From positions 1 to 55,722 of IMG/VR virus record IMGVR_UViG_3300025065_000003: a stretch of 55,722 nucleotides of DNA; one strand, written 5' to 3'. Below, piece by piece: positions 2,819-11,894 of this stretch. Position 1 is the first letter of the stretch; every line of letters begins with the position of its first letter. The translations under genes and the position numbers were made by a program. Under the pieces are notes generated by a model. That model ran no database searches, was not told the DNA's origin, and worked only from the letters and a program-made list of their open reading frames with translations. Origin of the DNA: a virus (Duplodnaviria > Caudoviricetes).

Positions 2819-3067
2819 ATGCTTAATACAGTGAAATTTATCTTATTAGCCCAATCCTATATTGGCGCTTTTTTCGCAATGTCATGGTGGCATGATGATT
2901 TACAGTTCGCGCCTTGGTGGCTTAAAACGCCCGTGTTTATTGTGGTATGCGTCTTCCTGGTAGCGCCGGTGGTTTGGATGATATTAGAAAATGAAGAATA
3001 TAAGGCAAACAGCCGCCGGTTAGAGCGGCTGCAATACCTCGAAAAGAAGCACTACTTCTCAGACTGA
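2819..3067 (+). CDS. Two-TM membrane protein (moron)
   Basis: Two hydrophobic segments and a charged tail; converges on the giant gene. Confidence 0.6.
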   Translation: MLNTVKFILLAQSYIGAFFAMSWWHDDLQFAPWWLKTPVFIVVCVFLVAPVVWMILENEEYKANSRRLERLQYLEKKHYFSD

Positions 3068-6000
3068 ACCGTTCCCTCTGCCTGGTTATAAAGCAGGTTA
3101 AAAAAGTCCACCTCGCTATCCATCGCGTCTTCAATCTCGTCGAGCTGTTCGTCGCGCTCGGCGGAAGTTAAGCGCTCATCGGCTTCGATGGCATCGCGCA
3201 CTTTGCGTAGTTCTCTCAGCGTTTTTTCAAGATCTTTCGCCATATCAAACAGCGCTATCTTGCCGCCATGTTCGTCATAGAAACTGCGCGCTTCCTCTCT
3301 GGGTAGATTGATAAACTCCTCATGCAGTTGCCCAACTTCCGTGCGGCGCTCGTAGAACGTTTGAATATCGCCGTACTCATTGACCTCAGACTTGAAGCGG
3401 CCCACAAACGGAATGCGGTGGGCATCGATGGTCTCGCCAGTCGCTGTGCGCTTAATGCTGTCCGCCACCTTTTCAGTAAATGACCAAGCACCACCGCCGT
3501 AATAGTTGACCACATGCTGCAGTACGTCAGGGCTAACATCGATACCGCCTGACCGGTATTCGCTGCCGCCTGTCAGCTCATTAATAAACTGGGCAAAGCT
3601 TTGGTAAGCCGATGGCGTAGAGCGGAAGGCAAGTGAGCTATCTGGCTTGGGCGTGCCGGAGGGGAAATTGTCTTTAAAGATCACGCGGCCTGCAAAGTCT
3701 TCGTTAACGGCTACCTGGGTCACCGAGCCTAACAGTGTAGGCGTGAGGTTTTTCATCACCAAGTTGGATGTATCCTCTGAATCTTGGAAGCCGATGGGTG
3801 AGAAGCTACCAAGAATAGCCAGCGTCATATCTTTACCCGCCTCTGTCAGCGATGATTTGCCCGACATAACGGATTCAGCGTGCGTGCCGATGTTTGAGAA
3901 TACGTTGTATCCATAAGGCAAAGGAATGCGCACATAGTCCTTGCCGCCTGTCATGATGATCAGATTGCGCTCTTTAACGTGGCCGGGAATCTTGTCATAA
4001 AACAGCTCACCATCATCATCCTCATCTGACATCATGCGGTTGAACATGGCCATAGCGTAACTGCCTACAGCCATGCCTACCGCTAACTTTTGCGCGGCGT
4101 TCATGCGGCCCCAGATGTTCATGCGGTTGCCACCGACTGGCGTGTCTTTCACTGTAGCCATGGTGCGAGCAACGTTCATGGTGCCCTGGATAGATGCGTT
4201 GGCAAACATGTAAGCTGCATTAAGTGCAGTTCCCGCTTCCCCTCTGCGGTTAAAGTTGACCGTCAGGTTTTTAGCCAAGCTTGCGGCCTTCTTGCGGCTA
4301 ATGCCTGCCCTGCGCGCATTCACATAAGCTGATAGGCGCACCGCGTTTTCAACGGAGCCGTTCATGTTCTCAACGAAGTCGGCTACGGTCTTCTTCGCCT
4401 TCAGCATATTGCCCATAGTGCCGCCGTTCTCACGGCCAATAATGCTTTTGATCTCTTTGGCTTGACCAGCCAAATCCTTCATATCGAAGTAGCCTGTCTT
4501 GGCCCCATCCTCGATAAACTCATCGAACCAACGATCCCACTCAGTGTTTCGTGATGCGTCAGGGTCAGCAAGCCCTCGATAGGCTGCCTTCATGGCGCGG
4601 GGAATATCTCTCGCCGTCTGCCTGGCAATCTTCTGGCCTTTTATCTTGCCGTCATCCCTGGTCTGCTCTGCCGCCACGTTCAGAAGCGCCGTCTGCACGT
4701 CTCGGGTAAAGTTGGACAGCATGAACTCAGGGTTATAGCTGGTCATCATAGCGGATAGAGCGCGTGTGCCAGCTGCGGCAGTACGTACCAGCAGGTTGTT
4801 CTGCTCTGGCCCTACATTGCGCATTGCGTTCAGCAGGCGCTGGTCGTTGATCTTAATGTAGTATGTCCGGCCCGCCTTCTTGGTTTTGAAGTAACGCTCG
4901 TTCATTTCCATGGCTACCGAGCGCTCTTCTACTTCAATGCGTTTGGTGCCGTCTGGGTTAGTGCGCTCGACCTGAGTACGCTGAGTATCCGGGTCGTTGT
5001 TGGTGAACACCTGCCACAAATCGGGGTTGGGGTTATCCGTGATCAGTGATAGCAAGGCATTGCCAACTTCGTTTTTGCGCTTGCGAATAACAGACTCAGT
5101 GGTATCGACAATCGCTTGCGTAGAAGGTGAAGCCGCTTTTGATAGGCGACCAAGCGCCGTTTTAGTTTCTCGCCCACCGATCTCATAGCCGCGACCAGAA
5201 CGCATCCGGCCACTGCCGTCCTGGCCCACAGGAACATCTTCATCATTTGCCCAACCTTTCAACGGTACGTAGTAGTCATAGCTGGCATCCCAAGCATCTA
5301 GCACCTCATCCGTCTCCAGTCCGCCTTCGCGGATGATCTCGCGGCGATGTGCCAGCATGTCATCCACGATAGCGGCCAAGCGCTCAAGCCGGAGCTTCTT
5401 GCCGCTGCTTTCGGCCTCTTGCATGATGGCGGCCGCTTCGGCATTCGTCATGCCTGAGCCGCCATCTGCGTACTTGGGATCATTAGGATTGCGTTCAGCT
5501 ATTCGGGCATTTCGCTCTGGCGCATGACGAGCATAAAGGTAGGCGTCCAACTCTTCTTGCTGAATGCCGCGCGCAGCCATGCCTTTGGCTAGCTTCTCGA
5601 CGTAGTTGCGGCTTAGCTCATTCAAGTCACGCTCTGTTTTACCGTGGAAAAGCTCCTCCGCTAGGTACACATCATTGTCTTCATTGATGTTGCCACCGGC
5701 TTTCTTGATGGCTTCTTGCGTGACCTTGAGTCGGTTCATTTTGTCTGCCATTTTGCGCAGTGCGGTTTGGCTTAGTGACTCATCAGGTAGCGCAAAGTTA
5801 GTGCTGTCGTTGGCGTAGTCGCCGCCAGGGGGGGATGAAAGGCTAAACAGCAGGTCATTACTATCAACGCCATCAGGATCGAAAGCCGCCTGAGCTGAGC
5901 GGATATCTTCCGTATTAAACAGCACAATCTCTTGCGAGCCATCCCTATCTTTTAGCTGAGTAACAACACCATCAAACCCCATGCTGCGCAACTTTTCCGT

Positions 6001-9000
6001 AAGCGCCCTTGAGTCTTCTGGCGTTGCGTTCATCATGGATTTCTTTTTATCAACTGGCACTCGCAGAAGGGATGACGGCTTAATGAATAGCGGCATGACA
6101 TTTGGTTCAGCCATGCCTGACTTCATGTTGGAATAGCTGCTGGCGAAATCAGGATTATCAATAACGTAGACACCCTGTCCCAACCACCCTGCGTCCTTTT
6201 GGCTCCAGTGGCCAATCTCAAATGCGCTTATGTCTTCAGCTGTTCCGTGGTAGAAATTCTGCGGTACTCCTCTGGATAATCCCGCTTCATTGCTTCCTCG
6301 GTCATTCCGTAGATCGCCTCGAAATCCGTCACCTGGTCCGGTGGGTACTTCTGAGAGAGATCCCGAAACATCGCTTCCAGTTCTTTCCGCTCTTTCTCGG
6401 AAGGTAATTTGCCCGTCATCATTCATCTCCGCTGCGATTGCTTCATCGATAGAGGCAATGTAACCCATGTCTCGGGCGCGTTGCATCCGGCCTTCCTGGC
6501 TCATGTCCAAGCCTTTGGCTTCAGCCCGCTGCCAGGCTGTGCTTTCTGAGCTGCGATTATTCAAGCTGAATAGTGGCGCGTCTGAATCGCTGGCCTGCTG
6601 TTGGCGGCGCAGGTATTCCCGCGACCGCTCAGACAACTGCATAACGTCCGCATCCGTCCAGTTCATGCTGGGGAAGTAGCGACGCAGGAGTTCACGGATT
6701 TTGGCAACAGCGCGACGCAGCACATTGGGCTGCCAGCCTTTTTCTGTGAGGTGGGCAACCATTTCTTCAGCGATGGTTATTTGATGCTCGGGGTTAGATT
6801 GATCAAGGAACGGGTAGCTTTCTAGCACTTCGTTCAGCGCCTCACGTCCACGCGGGTCCAGCGGCAGCGAGTTATAGACTTGCCGCATCACTGGCTCTAG
6901 CTCAGCGCCTAGCACGCCGCGAATGCCCTTATGGCCTACCGCTTCGTGAACGGCAGTTTGTACACCTTCTTCAATGCTGGCGACATTATCAGCAACGACA
7001 TACAGCTCTTCGCCAATAAACATGCCACGCACGTCGCGAGGGTTAACGCCGCGCAGCATCATACCCAGCAGCGCTTCAGGCGGTAGTTCTTTTGTTGATT
7101 GTATGATTCGAGTATTGGAAAGCTCTGGGGTTTCTGCTAAGGCAGCGGTAATGTCGGCAGCGCTAGGGACATCATTAGGCTGACGTGAAGCTGTCTCTGG
7201 CTGCGTACTAAATAGCGCATCTTGCTCTGTCGATGCTTCGGTTTGATCTGTGCCGCTTAGCACTTCTGCAACAGGGCCTTGCCCCCTTCTGCTGGCCTGC
7301 GTCCACTCTCCCTGGCTGATAAGCACAGAACTGCCACGCTCTTCGCTGGTCGCTTGAAGCGTACCGTCTTTATTGATTGAATCGACGGTATAGGAATCGC
7401 CTGCTTTGGCGTAGCCCACATCGGTTGCCAGCTTGATCGTGTCTCCTACCATTGCGCCGCCAAAGGCATCGCTAACCAACTGCTGACGCGGCGTTAACTT
7501 TTTAGGCTTGCGCTGCTTAGATACTGGCGATGTAGCCTGCGTGATAGGCTCAGAGGAAGACGGCGTGCTGAATATGTCGTTCTGCCCGCGTGATTCGGCA
7601 ATATCGTTAGGCCGGTTACTGCCACTTAATACAAAGTCACCTGCCTCACGGTCTGCCTGGGCGCGCAGCGCTTCTTGGATACGCTGATCGGCTTCGGCTT
7701 GCTCAGCTTGTTGAACTTGCTGTTCGCGCTGAGCAAGACTTTCTTCTGTTTGGGTTTCGAGCAAGGGCTCTTGCTGCCGCGCTGCCTGACGCTGCGCTGT
7801 TCGCCTTTCAATGATGCGCTCTCGCGCTTGCGCTCTTTCTTGCGCCGCGCTAGGGAGTGACAGTATCAATTCATGACGGCGCGCCTGCTCTGCATCTGTC
7901 GCAAAATCTAGCACGCTCAATTGATCGTTGGGGTCTGCGTTTTTAAGCGCCTCGGCATAGCGCTGCTCTATCGGCTCCATAACGCGATTGAGCTCACTGC
8001 GTATTTCGTCAGGCGTCCTTTCTTGAGCGATATCAGACGCCTGCCGTTCACTGGCGGGCTGGCTATCACTAAGCGCATCCGGGCGCTCAGCGGATAATGC
8101 CAACTGCTTAGCCTCAGTCAGTGTTTTACCAGTCGTGAAATTATTGCCCTGGTCATAGGCTTTCTTATCAGCGAACACCATAAACATGGGAATACGGCTT
8201 CCACCGCTCCCCATAGAATGATCAGCGATAACAGTGCCGTCGCTGCCTTCCCATACACGACTGCCGTTGGAGCGTCGTCGCCAAGCAATAGATGAAGGCT
8301 GTGAAGTCTGTTGCTCAGTTATGGCGGCATCAGCGTCACCTTGAGCAGCATCCTGCACAGCAAAGCCCCATCCACCCTCTACCTCAACGGGCTGGGCGTT
8401 GGGCGTATCACGGAAGCGCTTGGATAGCTCGACGGCTTTGCGCGTCTGAAACGGCTTGCCGTCGGCCTTGAGGGTTACCGCTGGCTCTGCTTGCGCTCCT
8501 GCTCTAGTGCGTGGGCGTTGTTCTCCTGCACGCGCTGTTCGTGCGTCGTTGACTGCAGGTACTGGTTCACTTCTTCCAGCGTCTTGCCCTGCTTGATTAG
8601 CCTGTCCGCTGCTAGGTGCTGGTGTACGTCCTTCGCTCGCTGCTGTGCTGTTAGGGCCATTCAGTAATGCCTCTTTAAGTTCTCGCGTCACGCTGGCCAG
8701 TGTTTCGCCATCCTTCACACGGCGCGCGGCGTCGTTGATCTGCTGGTTAATTTCTGGCGTGGTTGTTGCTCGCTCAAGTAGCGCAATGGCGTCTGCCGAG
8801 GTTTCCTGTAGGGCGTTATTGCGATCCTTGGCGATGCGGTTGCCTGCCTGCTCAGCCGTTTGGGCGTTATCGTTCAGCGTAGCGAATAAGCGCTTGTCGC
8901 GCACCAGGGTTTGGCGAAGGTTATCCATGACCTTCACGCGCTCACCAATAAGCGACTCTGCCGGATCATCACCAAACAAACCGCCTTGCTCGCCTTGGCT

Positions 9001-11877
9001 TTCGGCAAAGCCTGCTTGGCGCACTTCGTTAGCCAGTAATTCGCGTTGATTGTCGTTGGTCGGCTTCACGCGCTGGAAAACACCGACGGCGGCAAGCTGC
9101 TGGTCGGGGTCGGCAAAAGAACGACCGATAACCGCGCCGTCCTTCTCAGTGATTACCTTGTTAAGCACCGCACCAAACGGCTCAGTGTCCAGTTTGGCAA
9201 TGTCGGCACCGTCGCGCACAAGCTGAGTACGCGGCAGGTTGCTCTCGCGTATCACCGTATCGATATCGCCTTCGCTATTGCGGAACACCTTGGCGGCATC
9301 CATTGCGGTGGCGCTACCTGCAGCAATGTTCGCCTCAGCGGCAGCGCGGCGCGCATCCTCAACGGTAACGCCATCGGCTTCACGCAGCACAATCGCGTTC
9401 ACGTCTGGCTGTTGTAGCTGGCGAGCTAGGTTAATGCGGTGGTGGCCATCAGCTGCGTACACGCTGCCATCGGTGCGCTCATGCAGAATTAGGTTGCCCG
9501 CACGCAAGTCATCCCATTTCTCGATGCCTTCAAGGCGGCTATCTACGCCTTGCTCATTCACCTCTGTACGGAACTGATAGGCTTCGGGGTCTACTTGAAT
9601 GCTCTCAACGGGTACGCGACGCGGTGTTTTTGTGTCTGGGTCTGCAGAAGGCTGATCGGGGGCAATGGCAGGAGTCGCTTCTTCTGCCATCTCCCTATTG
9701 GCTGTAGGCACATTGCCGAAAGGCAGCTCCATAGCGCCTTTACTAACCCACTGCTTCAGGTTTTCAACGGACGTTTCAGAAATATCACCCAGCCCCTGCC
9801 AACCGTCTTCATAATTATCTAGGTAACCTTGGCGTGCCTGCTCTAATGAATCAAAGCCAAGTAGCACCTTGTGCTCATCAAAGGTGCCATCAGGGTTGAT
9901 TTGATCAACTACATAGGCACGCTGGGAGCTAGGGTTATCACCTACAAAAACATCGAGATTGTCGCCGTCTGCCGCCTTCGTGCCCTTAATATCACCATAG
10001 TGGTGTGCCATCAGGCTTTCCCACTGAGCACCTTCTGGTGTGGTACCACGACGTGTTGAGCCTTTAGGGTTCTCGATGGCAATATCAAATCCGTTTAGCC
10101 TTATGCGCCCCTTTCGATAGTTGCCCGCCTCGGCTTGAGCGGGGGTAGGCTCGGTGTTTGTCTCGCGGGCTGCTTGTTCAATTTGCGTAGCAGAATCTTG
10201 CAGCTGTAAGCCACCTGCTTGCGCTGCGTCGTCGCCGTTAATCGTGATTGTGGTATCGGGAAGATCAGCATTAGGGTCGTAGTCTGCAATGCCGTCTTGT
10301 GCGGCTTGCTCGCGCCATGCTTCCTCCCAACGGCGCTGGGCATCCATATCCAGGCCTGCTGCTTGCTCTTGAGTGCCATCATTATTGTCAGTGCTATTTA
10401 AGCGATCCATTACTCGAGCGAAGCGCTCAGAGACGCTTTGTAGCTGCTCACGAACAGGCATTAAAGCATCGCTATCGTTGCGGGACCGCGCCATAGTTTC
10501 AGCCTCAAGTGCGGCGGATATCTCGCTACTAATGGCGTCCATTTCAGCAACGGCATCGTTATCGCCACGCTCCTCAGCAGTAGTGCGCAGGGCTTTAAAG
10601 GCGTCACCGTAGCTGATGGAGTCACGCACCTCGCGCTCGGCGGATGACAACTCAAAGCGGGGTCTGGCGATTAATTCGGCGGCGGTACCGACAGCCTCAG
10701 CATTGGCGGTTTCGGCTTCTGGAGTCAGCGCCTCCTCTGGAGCGGGGGAAGATTGCTCAGTAGGGGATTCGCTAGGCTCTGGCTGCTCACTTCCCTGCTG
10801 ATTATTTCCGCGCAACTCCATGGCGGCGGTACCAGCTCGCACAGCGCCCCCGGTGGGGCCGCCAACAATCACGCCACCTGCCGCACGGCGCGCAGCGGTT
10901 GTGGCATTCCAGCCTGTCTCTGTGCCCACAGACTCCCCAGCGTACTCAATACCGCCTTCTTGAATCGCCTCAGTCACACTTTCTGTAACGGCGGCGCGAC
11001 CAACAGCCCCGGGTATTTGTCGTGCGCTAGTTACCGCATTTCCACTACCTGGGAGTAATCGGCCAAGAGCAAAGCGGTCCAACAGCACGGAAGCAGCGGC
11101 GGTAGGCCCGGACACAGCATAGTCGCGACCTTCCGGCATTCCTTCGCGGTTGTCGTTCTCAACACGGCCTTCGCCTACCTCCTGTGTTCGCGCCGCCAGG
11201 TAGGCAGGCAGGCTTACCACTAGGCCTGCCATATCGGCCAGTGCTGCTGGCCCTTGCTCGGCAGCAGCGCCCGCGATGGTTCTAATGCTTGGCTCATCAA
11301 GGGCGCGGTCAATCGTGTAGTTAGGCTGGTAGCCTAGGCTAATGTCTTCAACCGCCTGCCCAGTGTCGATAAGCCCGGTGCTGGTATCCTCTGGCTTGGC
11401 GCGCATCGTGAAGTCTAGGCCAAAGCCGCCTAGCGCCACATCCGGTTCGTAGCCCCGCTCGCGCATCTCATCAACGCTGCCGCCAATTACACCTGGGTTA
11501 ATGCCTCCAAGCGCGTCGGTAATCGCCTTTTCTCCCCTGTCCGCTACGTTGCCGACGAACTGCAGCGCGTTACCTGCTAGATCAAGTCCGCGTTCGCCAG
11601 CGTTGCGCAAGGCATTGCTGGCTAAGCCGGGCGCTTCAGGCTGGCCCTCGTCAGTGCTGGGCTGATTTTCGCGCTCACCAAACACGTCAGATGCCGTACG
11701 GGTAAAGAACTGGCCTTGCACATCTTCGCGCAGCGATGCTGGCGTATTGGGCTCAATGACGCGGCGGTAGAACTCGCCTCGCACGCGTTGTTTGGTCTGC
11801 CAGTCAGCGGCCTTAAAGTCTGGATCGTTGGCGATGTCTGTCCATCTAGGGGGAGTTTGATTATTGGCGGCGTTCAC
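3052..11877 (-). CDS. Giant polyvalent virion/ejection protein (InPase-like, ParB-like, zincin metallopeptidase, ADP-ribosyltransferase and LPD38-like C-terminal domains)
   Basis: GNYRKG..IENPKGS..HYGDIKGT..DGDNLDVF..DEHK (InPase, ~9735-10140); ADGHHR (ParB-like, ~9440); HEAVGH (6931-6948); FYHGT..GVY..GFDGV..EIVLF (ART, ~5850-6260); IPLPYG/SFSP region (LPD38-like). GTG at 11877 follows AAGGAG. Confidence 0.88.
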   Translation of the reverse strand: MNAANNQTPPRWTDIANDPDFKAADWQTKQRVRGEFYRRVIEPNTPASLREDVQGQFFTRTASDVFGERENQPSTDEGQPEAPGLASNALRNAGERGLDLAGNALQFVGNVADRGEKAITDALGGINPGVIGGSVDEMRERGYEPDVALGGFGLDFTMRAKPEDTSTGLIDTGQAVEDISLGYQPNYTIDRALDEPSIRTIAGAAAEQGPAALADMAGLVVSLPAYLAARTQEVGEGRVENDNREGMPEGRDYAVSGPTAAASVLLDRFALGRLLPGSGNAVTSARQIPGAVGRAAVTESVTEAIQEGGIEYAGESVGTETGWNATTAARRAAGGVIVGGPTGGAVRAGTAAMELRGNNQQGSEQPEPSESPTEQSSPAPEEALTPEAETANAEAVGTAAELIARPRFELSSAEREVRDSISYGDAFKALRTTAEERGDNDAVAEMDAISSEISAALEAETMARSRNDSDALMPVREQLQSVSERFARVMDRLNSTDNNDGTQEQAAGLDMDAQRRWEEAWREQAAQDGIADYDPNADLPDTTITINGDDAAQAGGLQLQDSATQIEQAARETNTEPTPAQAEAGNYRKGRIRLNGFDIAIENPKGSTRRGTTPEGAQWESLMAHHYGDIKGTKAADGDNLDVFVGDNPSSQRAYVVDQINPDGTFDEHKVLLGFDSLEQARQGYLDNYEDGWQGLGDISETSVENLKQWVSKGAMELPFGNVPTANREMAEEATPAIAPDQPSADPDTKTPRRVPVESIQVDPEAYQFRTEVNEQGVDSRLEGIEKWDDLRAGNLILHERTDGSVYAADGHHRINLARQLQQPDVNAIVLREADGVTVEDARRAAAEANIAAGSATAMDAAKVFRNSEGDIDTVIRESNLPRTQLVRDGADIAKLDTEPFGAVLNKVITEKDGAVIGRSFADPDQQLAAVGVFQRVKPTNDNQRELLANEVRQAGFAESQGEQGGLFGDDPAESLIGERVKVMDNLRQTLVRDKRLFATLNDNAQTAEQAGNRIAKDRNNALQETSADAIALLERATTTPEINQQINDAARRVKDGETLASVTRELKEALLNGPNSTAASEGRTPAPSSGQANQAGQDAGRSEPVPAVNDARTARAGEQRPRTRAGAQAEPAVTLKADGKPFQTRKAVELSKRFRDTPNAQPVEVEGGWGFAVQDAAQGDADAAITEQQTSQPSSIAWRRRSNGSRVWEGSDGTVIADHSMGSGGSRIPMFMVFADKKAYDQGNNFTTGKTLTEAKQLALSAERPDALSDSQPASERQASDIAQERTPDEIRSELNRVMEPIEQRYAEALKNADPNDQLSVLDFATDAEQARRHELILSLPSAAQERAQARERIIERRTAQRQAARQQEPLLETQTEESLAQREQQVQQAEQAEADQRIQEALRAQADREAGDFVLSGSNRPNDIAESRGQNDIFSTPSSSEPITQATSPVSKQRKPKKLTPRQQLVSDAFGGAMVGDTIKLATDVGYAKAGDSYTVDSINKDGTLQATSEERGSSVLISQGEWTQASRRGQGPVAEVLSGTDQTEASTEQDALFSTQPETASRQPNDVPSAADITAALAETPELSNTRIIQSTKELPPEALLGMMLRGVNPRDVRGMFIGEELYVVADNVASIEEGVQTAVHEAVGHKGIRGVLGAELEPVMRQVYNSLPLDPRGREALNEVLESYPFLDQSNPEHQITIAEEMVAHLTEKGWQPNVLRRAVAKIRELLRRYFPSMNWTDADVMQLSERSREYLRRQQQASDSDAPLFSLNNRSSESTAWQRAEAKGLDMSQEGRMQRARDMGYIASIDEAIAAEMNDDGQITFRERAERTGSDVSGSLSEVPTGPGDGFRGDLRNDRGSNEAGLSRGVPQNFYHGTAEDISAFEIGHWSQKDAGWLGQGVYVIDNPDFASSYSNMKSGMAEPNVMPLFIKPSSLLRVPVDKKKSMMNATPEDSRALTEKLRSMGFDGVVTQLKDRDGSQEIVLFNTEDIRSAQAAFDPDGVDSNDLLFSLSSPPGGDYANDSTNFALPDESLSQTALRKMADKMNRLKVTQEAIKKAGGNINEDNDVYLAEELFHGKTERDLNELSRNYVEKLAKGMAARGIQQEELDAYLYARHAPERNARIAERNPNDPKYADGGSGMTNAEAAAIMQEAESSGKKLRLERLAAIVDDMLAHRREIIREGGLETDEVLDAWDASYDYYVPLKGWANDEDVPVGQDGSGRMRSGRGYEIGGRETKTALGRLSKAASPSTQAIVDTTESVIRKRKNEVGNALLSLITDNPNPDLWQVFTNNDPDTQRTQVERTNPDGTKRIEVEERSVAMEMNERYFKTKKAGRTYYIKINDQRLLNAMRNVGPEQNNLLVRTAAAGTRALSAMMTSYNPEFMLSNFTRDVQTALLNVAAEQTRDDGKIKGQKIARQTARDIPRAMKAAYRGLADPDASRNTEWDRWFDEFIEDGAKTGYFDMKDLAGQAKEIKSIIGRENGGTMGNMLKAKKTVADFVENMNGSVENAVRLSAYVNARRAGISRKKAASLAKNLTVNFNRRGEAGTALNAAYMFANASIQGTMNVARTMATVKDTPVGGNRMNIWGRMNAAQKLAVGMAVGSYAMAMFNRMMSDEDDDGELFYDKIPGHVKERNLIIMTGGKDYVRIPLPYGYNVFSNIGTHAESVMSGKSSLTEAGKDMTLAILGSFSPIGFQDSEDTSNLVMKNLTPTLLGSVTQVAVNEDFAGRVIFKDNFPSGTPKPDSSLAFRSTPSAYQSFAQFINELTGGSEYRSGGIDVSPDVLQHVVNYYGGGAWSFTEKVADSIKRTATGETIDAHRIPFVGRFKSEVNEYGDIQTFYERRTEVGQLHEEFINLPREEARSFYDEHGGKIALFDMAKDLEKTLRELRKVRDAIEADERLTSAERDEQLDEIEDAMDSEVDFFNLLYNQAEGTVQSEK
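6228..6422 (-). CDS. Putative overprinted (+1 frame) small protein nested in the giant gene, just upstream of the ART core
   Basis: GGAG RBS then ATGATG; 64-aa helical, globular-looking sequence; the host frame here is a G/R/S/D-rich linker using AGA/CGA/GGA codons. Confidence 0.6.
   Translation of the reverse strand: MMTGKLPSEKERKELEAMFRDLSQKYPPDQVTDFEAIYGMTEEAMKRDYPEEYRRISTTEQLKT
8475..8660 (-). CDS. Putative overprinted (+1 frame) small protein nested in the giant gene, after the ParB-like region
   Basis: AAAGAGG RBS then ATG; 61-aa helical sequence with genome-typical CAG/AAG/GAG/CTG codons; the host frame is a low-complexity linker. Confidence 0.6.
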   Translation of the reverse strand: MALTAQQRAKDVHQHLAADRLIKQGKTLEEVNQYLQSTTHEQRVQENNAHALEQERKQSQR

Positions 11878-11894
11878 ACGCGGCTCCTTCAAGG

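Follow-up and report, generated by a model that had tools for sequence, protein, structure and literature searches.

The 55,722-nucleotide Caudoviricetes sequence IMGVR_UViG_3300025065_000003 (the window, i.e. the whole stretch of DNA that was analyzed) is a complete virus record with direct terminal repeats. Its minus strand carries a giant polyvalent-protein gene (3052..11892), called as an open reading frame (ORF) of 2946 amino acids, and within this gene lies a second ORF at 6228..6422 that could encode a protein of 64 amino acids (P0002). The nested ORF is located wholly within the longer ORF 11892..3052 on the same strand and is offset by +1 relative to the giant frame. It opens with two ATG codons, at 6422 and 6419, and closes with a TAA at 6230-6228. 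We analyzed this nested ORF together with the part of the giant gene that surrounds it.

The giant gene and the spacer before its ART domain

Pfam searches of the giant protein matched InPase (residues 585-716), ART-PolyVal (residues 1874-2001) and LPD38 (residues 2632-2830). The presence of these three domains on a single polypeptide places the gene among the polyvalent proteins with ADP-ribosyltransferase (ART) domains, a type of protein described by Iyer et al. in 2017 (PMC5512222). The ART-PolyVal domain (PF18760) begins at the FYHGT motif and was matched at 5890..6273 on the minus strand (47.6 bits, cut-off 31.2). Upstream of it, at 6460..6513 on the same strand, is a GLDMS..RMQRARDMGY helix motif, which the alignment of relatives showed to be conserved 5' of ART-PolyVal domains.

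The distance from RM.RA in this helix motif to YHGT is 83 residues in the window, compared with 20 residues in six distant loci (L012, L013, L014, L016, L017 and L020) and also in the proteins P0018 and P0045. The first-pass annotation, made from the sequence alone, had pointed to an unusually long gap between the two motifs, and the comparison with distant ART-PolyVal modules bears this out. In Halomonadaceae relatives the same distance is 58 to 88 residues; these carry inserts at the same place, so that the insert is no peculiarity of this phage. The description of the segment as inserted is therefore plausible, with the qualification that the relatives hold other inserts at this site.

Translated in the main frame, the DNA of the nested ORF gives ...EMNDDGQITFRERAERTGSDVSGSLSEVPTGPGDGFRGDLRNDRGSNEAGLSRGVPQNFYHGT; EMNDDGQITFRERAERTGSDVSGSLSEVPTGPGDGFRGDLRNDRGSNEAGLSRGVPQN is followed by FYHGT at 6255. 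This is a G/R/S/D-rich linker, as had been claimed. The spacer corresponding to residues 1835-1874 of the giant protein (6271..6390, minus strand) is predicted to be disordered: in an AlphaFold2 model built on alignment A1 these residues (51-90 of the model) had a predicted local distance difference test score (pLDDT) below 50. The first part of the spacer (..MGYIASIDEAIAAEMNDDGQIT) is common to the Halomonadaceae relatives and folds confidently in the same model (pLDDT 76-91). The nested stop codon lies 8 codons beyond the start of FYHGT, so that the small ORF ends across this motif, in agreement with the first-pass annotation. A compensated frameshift or sequencing error was considered as the origin of the spacer and rejected, because annotated proteins of relatives have G/R/D/S-rich main-frame spacers at the same place and the peptide occurs in no long protein among 1.84 billion representatives.

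The nested ORF has start signals of its own at the sequence level, namely the ATG pair and a Shine-Dalgarno (SD)-like GGAG (6427..6430, minus strand) located 4 nt 5' of the ATG at 6422 and 7 nt 5' of the ATG at 6419. This GGAG falls in the main-frame codons for A-E-M. The same-strand +1 ORF of 64 residues with its own ribosome-binding-site-like sequence was thus recovered as annotated, its first 56 residues being the peptide quoted at that time. No sigma-70-like promoter was found directly upstream of the ORF on the minus strand, nor any unusual RNA structure around its start, where folding was no better than that of shuffled sequence (z -0.17); internal initiation on the giant-gene mRNA is therefore assumed. 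The length of the ORF is unremarkable, since the giant gene has 13 +1 ORFs of at least 45 amino acids and its +1 frame stays open for as many as 105 codons. Sites combining an SD-like sequence with an ATG are also 13 in number along the giant gene. Eleven of these are out of frame, and only two of the eleven (6422 and 8660) open an ORF of at least 30 amino acids.

Selection, codon usage and homologues of the nested frame

The pattern of substitution was determined by comparison with the IMG/VR contig G343 (loci L001 and L035), which is 92% identical to the window over 4286 aligned bases, with 355 substitutions. By main-frame codon position (1:2:3), the counts were 4:0:0 in the spacer interval 6255-6425 and 45:27:279 in the rest of the alignment (Fisher p=3.3e-4). 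Each of the four spacer substitutions is silent in the +1 frame but replaces a residue of the main frame (A>T, G>R, G>R and F>L). In sliding windows, position 1 exceeded position 3 in only 2 of 98, both on the nested ORF. The first-pass annotation had proposed that both frames be compared in this respect, and Nei-Gojobori counts for the spacer gave 0 synonymous (sd) and 4 nonsynonymous (nd) differences in the main frame against sd 4 and nd 0 in the +1 frame, a pattern of purifying selection on the embedded frame, with few events.

In the ART domain, compared with L001, the ratio of nonsynonymous to synonymous differences (pN/pS) was 0.12 in the main frame and 1.24 in the +1 frame. The phase reverts beyond FYHGT, where the tail of the nested ORF (residues 57-64 and the stop; 6228..6254, minus strand) runs out of frame over FYHGTAEDI: both substitutions relative to L001 in this tail are silent in the main frame and alter the nested residue (T>M and L>P), so the tail appears unconstrained. 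These results suggest that selection in the spacer acts on the small frame. A further comparison was made with P0043, whose partial sequence comes from a metagenome-assembled Halomonas genome; it was compared as protein alone, so that changes silent in the main frame are not visible. Of its residue changes, 7 fall in the 57-residue linker (1823-1879) and 6 in the 131 residues that follow, and the preceding 123 residues are unchanged. By available single-base routes, 5 of the 7 linker changes would be silent in the +1 frame.

Codon usage was analyzed with a score trained on 22 long ORFs of the phage and applied in sliding windows along the giant gene. An alternative frame outscored the main frame in 12 of 413 windows, 7 of them on 6453-6159 and 5 on 8679-8427. 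The G+C content of third codon positions (GC3) in the spacer was 0.34 in the main frame and 0.64 in the +1 frame, compared with 0.59 in the long genes of the phage.

The nested peptide was used in a phmmer search of 1.84 billion representative proteins, which gave four matches, all between 34 and 116 residues long. These were P0034 (83 residues, E 1e-13, 60% identity), P0035 (a 34-residue fragment identical to the nested peptide), P0036 (99 residues, E 4e-9), which has its own NCBI entry as a hypothetical protein from an uncultured Halomonas, and P0037 (116 residues, E 4e-6). A profile search added P0040 (83 residues) and P0042, the latter resembling P0036 in its N-terminal part only. The homologue set of the nested ORF consists of P0034, P0040 and P0036-P0039, where P0039, a sister of P0037, is encoded on contig L024 (1271 bases) by an ORF that no long ORF overlaps on the same strand. 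P0042 itself is a 147-residue paralogue encoded on the same 12,863-base contig as P0036; its first ~40 residues are common with P0036, and the remainder gave a weak helix-turn-helix match (HTH_3, E 0.03, below cut-off).

An alignment of six sequences including P0034 (A2) has 13 invariant columns across a core that corresponds to residues 5-56 of the nested protein (6255..6410, minus strand) and is common to free-standing and nested homologues. Conservation stops directly after ..YR. The tail of P0034 after ..EEYRR corresponds to the +1 frame of the ART-PolyVal domains in L006, L009, L010 and L011, and the tail of P0040 is near-identical to it, indicating that both proteins are nested copies adjoining ART. 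They are 57-61% identical copies with an open frame, the same start place and all 13 A2-invariant positions kept. Scans of viral and metagenome contigs with A2 found only the G343 contig and L024, and neither the GenBank phage collection (blastn and tblastn) nor the plasmid collection gave a match. The small-protein family is very rare. An ART alignment searched against 342 Halomonadaceae genomes found matches in 4.

Genome-typical codon usage and the existence of free-standing homologues make the small frame look older than the frame that crosses it. De novo overprinting would leave a nested frame of atypical codon usage without relatives outside the overlap; here it is the main frame that is atypical, the +1 codon usage is typical and free-standing homologues exist, so the term overprinted used in the first-pass annotation was not upheld. 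An older small frame fits the capture of an existing gene rather than overprinting de novo. In frame, the nested ORF is 47% identical to the free-standing L024 gene over 55 residues, and the main-frame spacer is 36% identical to the -1 frame of that gene over 42 residues. The giant protein thus has a short, disordered segment with likeness to an alternative frame of another family, which is the mark of out-of-frame remodelling. The spacer frame of the giant gene thus looks derived, an out-of-frame shadow of an older small gene.

From the substitution phase, the codon usage, the start signals and the homologues we consider it fairly probable that a pre-existing small gene lies in the +1 frame of the ART spacer, is under selection and is read through out of frame by the giant gene. 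The same four features agree with the first-pass view that a small +1 gene rides inside the giant gene without breaking it. The small gene, encoding a protein of about 56 residues predicted to form four helices, would sit between the GLDMS..MGY..DGQIT element and the ART-PolyVal domain. The giant frame would cross it out of frame and so acquire a disordered G/R/S/D spacer whose exact sequence may matter little. The small protein would probably be made from the giant-gene mRNA, with internal initiation at GGAG-N4/N7-ATG, and would end a few codons into the ART domain. The ORF, its signals, codon usage and homologues and the switch in substitution phase were established by sequence comparison; its translation is what we infer.

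A chance ORF would be expected to look similar in some respects. A hydrophilic spacer has few T-centred codons, so that its +1 frame stays open and encodes a charged, natural-looking peptide, and both the 13 +1 ORFs of at least 45 residues in the giant gene and the open +1 frames of the relatives' G/R/D-rich spacers are in line with this. Composition, however, cannot account for homologues at E 1e-13 to 4e-6 among 1.84 billion proteins, and leaves the shared motifs and the phase switch unexplained as well. We regard chance as an extremely improbable origin of the ORF.

Selection on the +1 frame would likewise result from a ribosomal frameshift that enters this frame after the TGA at 6425-6423, producing a truncated giant protein with the helical peptide as its C-terminus and lacking ART and LPD38. 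The stop directly before the ATG pair closes the +1 frame, so that entry would have to take place within a few codons of DGQIT, a stretch conserved among relatives. On the other hand, no slippery heptamer or known +1 shift site was found in the sequence, and RNA folding at the site does not exceed that of shuffled sequence. In addition, an ATG or TTG with an SD-like stretch occurs at the aligned position in three spacer types, and the free-standing homologues begin near the same point of the protein. A frameshift is thus very unlikely.

A different outcome of capture has to be weighed with more care, namely that, as the ART module became joined to the giant gene, a fragment of a small gene was taken up in another frame and is now a mere disordered linker. 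The open +1 frame, its codon usage and its likeness to free-standing genes would then be leftovers, no small protein being made. Watson, Lopez and Bapteste (2021, PMC8788219) describe, in the available text, out-of-frame remodelled gene families whose alternative-frame segments are short and disordered, and the present spacer, which resembles the -1 frame of a free-standing homologue and is predicted to be disordered, follows the same pattern. The module is also mobile: the relatives L002-L004 are without it, and divergence from L001 changes from 46/333 to 36/870 across 6463.

Several further observations weigh against a live small gene. An open frame and typical codons would also be expected soon after the capture of a gene fragment. 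The SD-like sequence and the ATG codons overlap the main-frame codons for A-E-M-N-D-D, which are conserved and belong to the confidently folded part (pLDDT 76-91), and they could be by-products of the main frame. The two remaining linker changes in P0043 (M40I and Y53H) would fall on positions at which the small family is invariant. The phase test itself consists of few events, four substitutions in one DNA pair together with the protein-inferred changes of P0043. P0034, P0040 and P0043 are known from proteins alone, the nesting of the first two being deduced from their tails. Finally, the 342 Halomonadaceae genomes gave no convincing match to A2, and one marginal match (E 0.0098) lies within an open frame of 1415 amino acids.

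A dead frame, however, should gain changes at all codon positions, whereas the spacer shows 4:0:0, all silent in the +1 frame, and most of the linker changes in P0043 would be +1-silent too. Likewise, P0034 and P0040 have kept the open frame, the start place and the 13 invariant positions at 57-61% identity, and a second nested ORF in the same giant gene, described below, is better conserved in its +1 frame than in the main frame across distant relatives. These results make it unlikely that the nested frame is no more than a relic of capture, and favor the selected small gene.

Spacers elsewhere in the gene family

The second nested ORF (8475..8660, minus strand) could encode 61 amino acids in the +1 frame, opens with GAGG-N9-ATG and is located in the spacer after the ParB-like region. 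It stands out by codon usage and by its SD-like sequence and ATG, and 8660-8475 is the sole other place in the giant gene where codon usage favors the +1 frame. Its +1 identity is 93-95% in L002-L004 and 42-46% in L007 and L010 (E about 1e-12), compared with main-frame identities of 89-95% and 33-34%, respectively. Substitutions by main-frame codon position were 7:1:2 and 8:2:2 over this ORF, against 0:1:15 and 4:1:29 in the upstream flank.

The long ART spacers of relatives were aligned as the first-pass annotation had suggested. L007 (from Halomonas sp. I1), L010 and L011 have an RM.RA-to-YHGT distance of 88 residues and an open +1 frame in the spacer, with AAGGAG-N6-TTG as its start in L007. 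The +1 ORFs in these segments (L007 1604-1900, L010 1616-1912 and L011 1613-1909) begin with TTG and are of an unrelated type: no relationship was detectable between the A2 family and their +1 peptides (alignment A3) by hhalign (probability 0.2, E 0.37). The position aligned to the second ATG of the window is this TTG in L007, L010 and L011, and an ATG in Kushneria. Between L007 and L010, substitutions by codon position were 20:6:10 in the spacer and 14:15:59 in the ART domain. In the spacers of L007, L010 and L011 the pN/pS was 0.28-0.44 for the +1 frame and 0.56-1.35 for the main frame; in their ART domains the +1 value was 1.5-2.0. The second nested ORF and the spacer ORFs of the relatives raise the prior expectation of real nested genes in this gene family.

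These spacers could be read more broadly, as slots in polyvalent genes for live small genes, in which +1 cassettes are swapped behind a conserved start region and each product acts on the adjoining enzyme domain. The start region would lie at the edge of the folded part, with the SD-like sequence and the ATG or TTG within ..GE..DG.., and the cassettes would comprise the P0002 type, a 62-residue type in L007, L010 and L011 and a shorter one in Kushneria; a further slot would follow the ParB-like domain. Each cassette would be crossed by the giant frame as a disordered linker, and a small product could, for example, keep ART silent in the producing cell. As a general description of the gene family this scheme seems to us rather improbable.

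The ART module itself varies among close relatives. The entire module with its spacer (window 5593-6795) is absent from three otherwise close relatives (L002-L004), in which query residues 108-296 or 78-274 are gone and the flanks on either side match at 71-83%. Divergence from L001 drops sharply at about 6463, with 46 differences in the 333 bases upstream of this position and 36 in the 870 bases downstream. The absence from L002-L004 and the drop in divergence suggest that the ART module has been exchanged by recombination.

A Halomonadaceae genome carries a short, broken ART-PolyVal remnant (L034, G186:C4:7959-8336) with one TGA and one TAG inside the match. In the IMG/VR contig L011, at ~1500-1620, just 5' of the spacer, the GLDMS..MGYISAIEDAI element is split across three frames, which could be a decaying copy or the result of sequencing errors.

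Window positions 5900-6800 were present, whole or in part, in 20 public-run rows from 14 studies, labeled as marine, seawater, freshwater and food-fermentation metagenomes; two of the rows may correspond to the source sample. Contigs of four runs were aligned to the window at 80% likeness, and in run X14 a single contig of 20,273 bases covers 5600-6995 with 96 differences. Among the 40 of 136 differences that were listed, none lies between 6239 and 6468, which speaks for neither reading of the spacer.

Possible role of the small protein and relation to known systems

The nested peptide had no match in Pfam, NCBIfam, PADLOC, PHROGs or the PDB sequences. AlphaFold2 on the six-sequence alignment A2 predicted four helices, with a mean pLDDT of 78 and a predicted template modelling score (pTM) of 0.41. 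With this model Foldseek found nothing at E <=0.001 in PDB or BFVD, and the ESM Atlas gave no usable match.

The first-pass annotation had proposed that the small protein is an antitoxin to the ART domain it adjoins. The window and G343/L001 copies directly precede the ART sequence, and P0034 and P0040 do so as well, judging by their tails. A complex predicted for peptide residues 1-58 with the ART domain scored 0.54, compared with 0.01 for the best of three controls; the runs share at least 72% of contacts, with a partner pLDDT of at least 77. Of 80 solved complexes 58 reached the mark set for this score, and of 110 mismatched pairs 2 did; these counts hold only roughly here because custom alignments were used. 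At scores of 0.60 or below, only 7 of the 80 solved complexes reached the mark, as did both of the passing mismatches.

Three results argue against a partnership with ART. By the rating of the prediction tool, a complex score of this size is wrong more often than right unless there is a strong prior. Neither Pfam, NCBIfam nor PADLOC has an antitoxin or defence family that matches the nested peptide, and the free-standing homologue P0039 on L024 has no ART neighbor, its neighbors lacking any Pfam match. Given a live gene, the complex model makes it possible that the small protein binds the adjoining ART domain in the producing cell and either inhibits it or helps it to fold or be packaged, a role that we propose tentatively. 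Otherwise the small protein would be the product of an unrelated accessory gene that occupies dispensable linker space.

Genes embedded in longer genes on the same strand are known. In phage lambda, Rz1 is embedded in Rz in the +1 frame. As in Rz/Rz1, the gene proposed here is a small gene wholly within a longer same-strand gene of a dsDNA phage, in another frame and with its own start. Rz and Rz1, however, are two structured proteins that act in lysis as a single complex, whereas the host frame in the present case encodes a disordered spacer in a 2946-residue multi-enzyme protein and the nested product has no family match.

The available text of a bioRxiv report (10.1101/520783) names comS/srfAB and rpmH/rnpA as the only two earlier bacterial cases of out-of-frame internal starts. 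Like comS in srfAB of Bacillus subtilis, which is expressed by internal initiation, the nested ORF would be a small gene in another frame of a giant multidomain gene. It differs in that comS is a competence regulator on a bacterial chromosome, while the present ORF lies in a phage gene beside an effector domain and is known from sequence alone. Compared with the families in the available text of Watson et al. (PMC8788219), the donor frame here seems to be alive in place, so that one DNA stretch serves both genes.

In type II antitoxin operons the usual order is antitoxin followed by toxin. Similarly to type II antitoxins and ART immunity proteins, the small helical protein would be encoded directly 5' of ART, overlapping its start. 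Unlike type II antitoxins, it has no separate cistron and no likeness in Pfam, NCBIfam or PADLOC, and its L024 homologue is without an ART neighbor.

The main text of the description of polyvalent proteins by Iyer et al. (PMC5512222) contains no nested genes and none of the terms 'overlapping', 'linker' or 'immunity protein'. A literature search gave no report of a nested gene in a polyvalent-protein gene, the sole paper joining the two topics being, in its available text, a description of a Sinorhizobium podovirus genome. The novelty thus lies in the surroundings, not in same-strand embedding as such: what looks like a live, captured gene occupies the stretch coding for a disordered spacer that immediately precedes an effector domain of a giant polyvalent phage protein. 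Also new are the second such gene in the same ORF and the different cassettes at the same slot in relatives.

Gene callers disallow genes within genes, and small proteins of this kind are consequently invisible in phage annotation. If the nested gene is live, giant injected multi-enzyme proteins would hold hidden cistrons in their linkers, and part of what passes for disordered linker would owe its sequence to another gene in the same DNA and not to any demand on the linker itself. The nested frame can take stops that are silent in the host frame; a live gene would thereby offer a concrete and cheap test case for the way in which a phage copes, ahead of packaging, with an ART domain that is potentially toxic.

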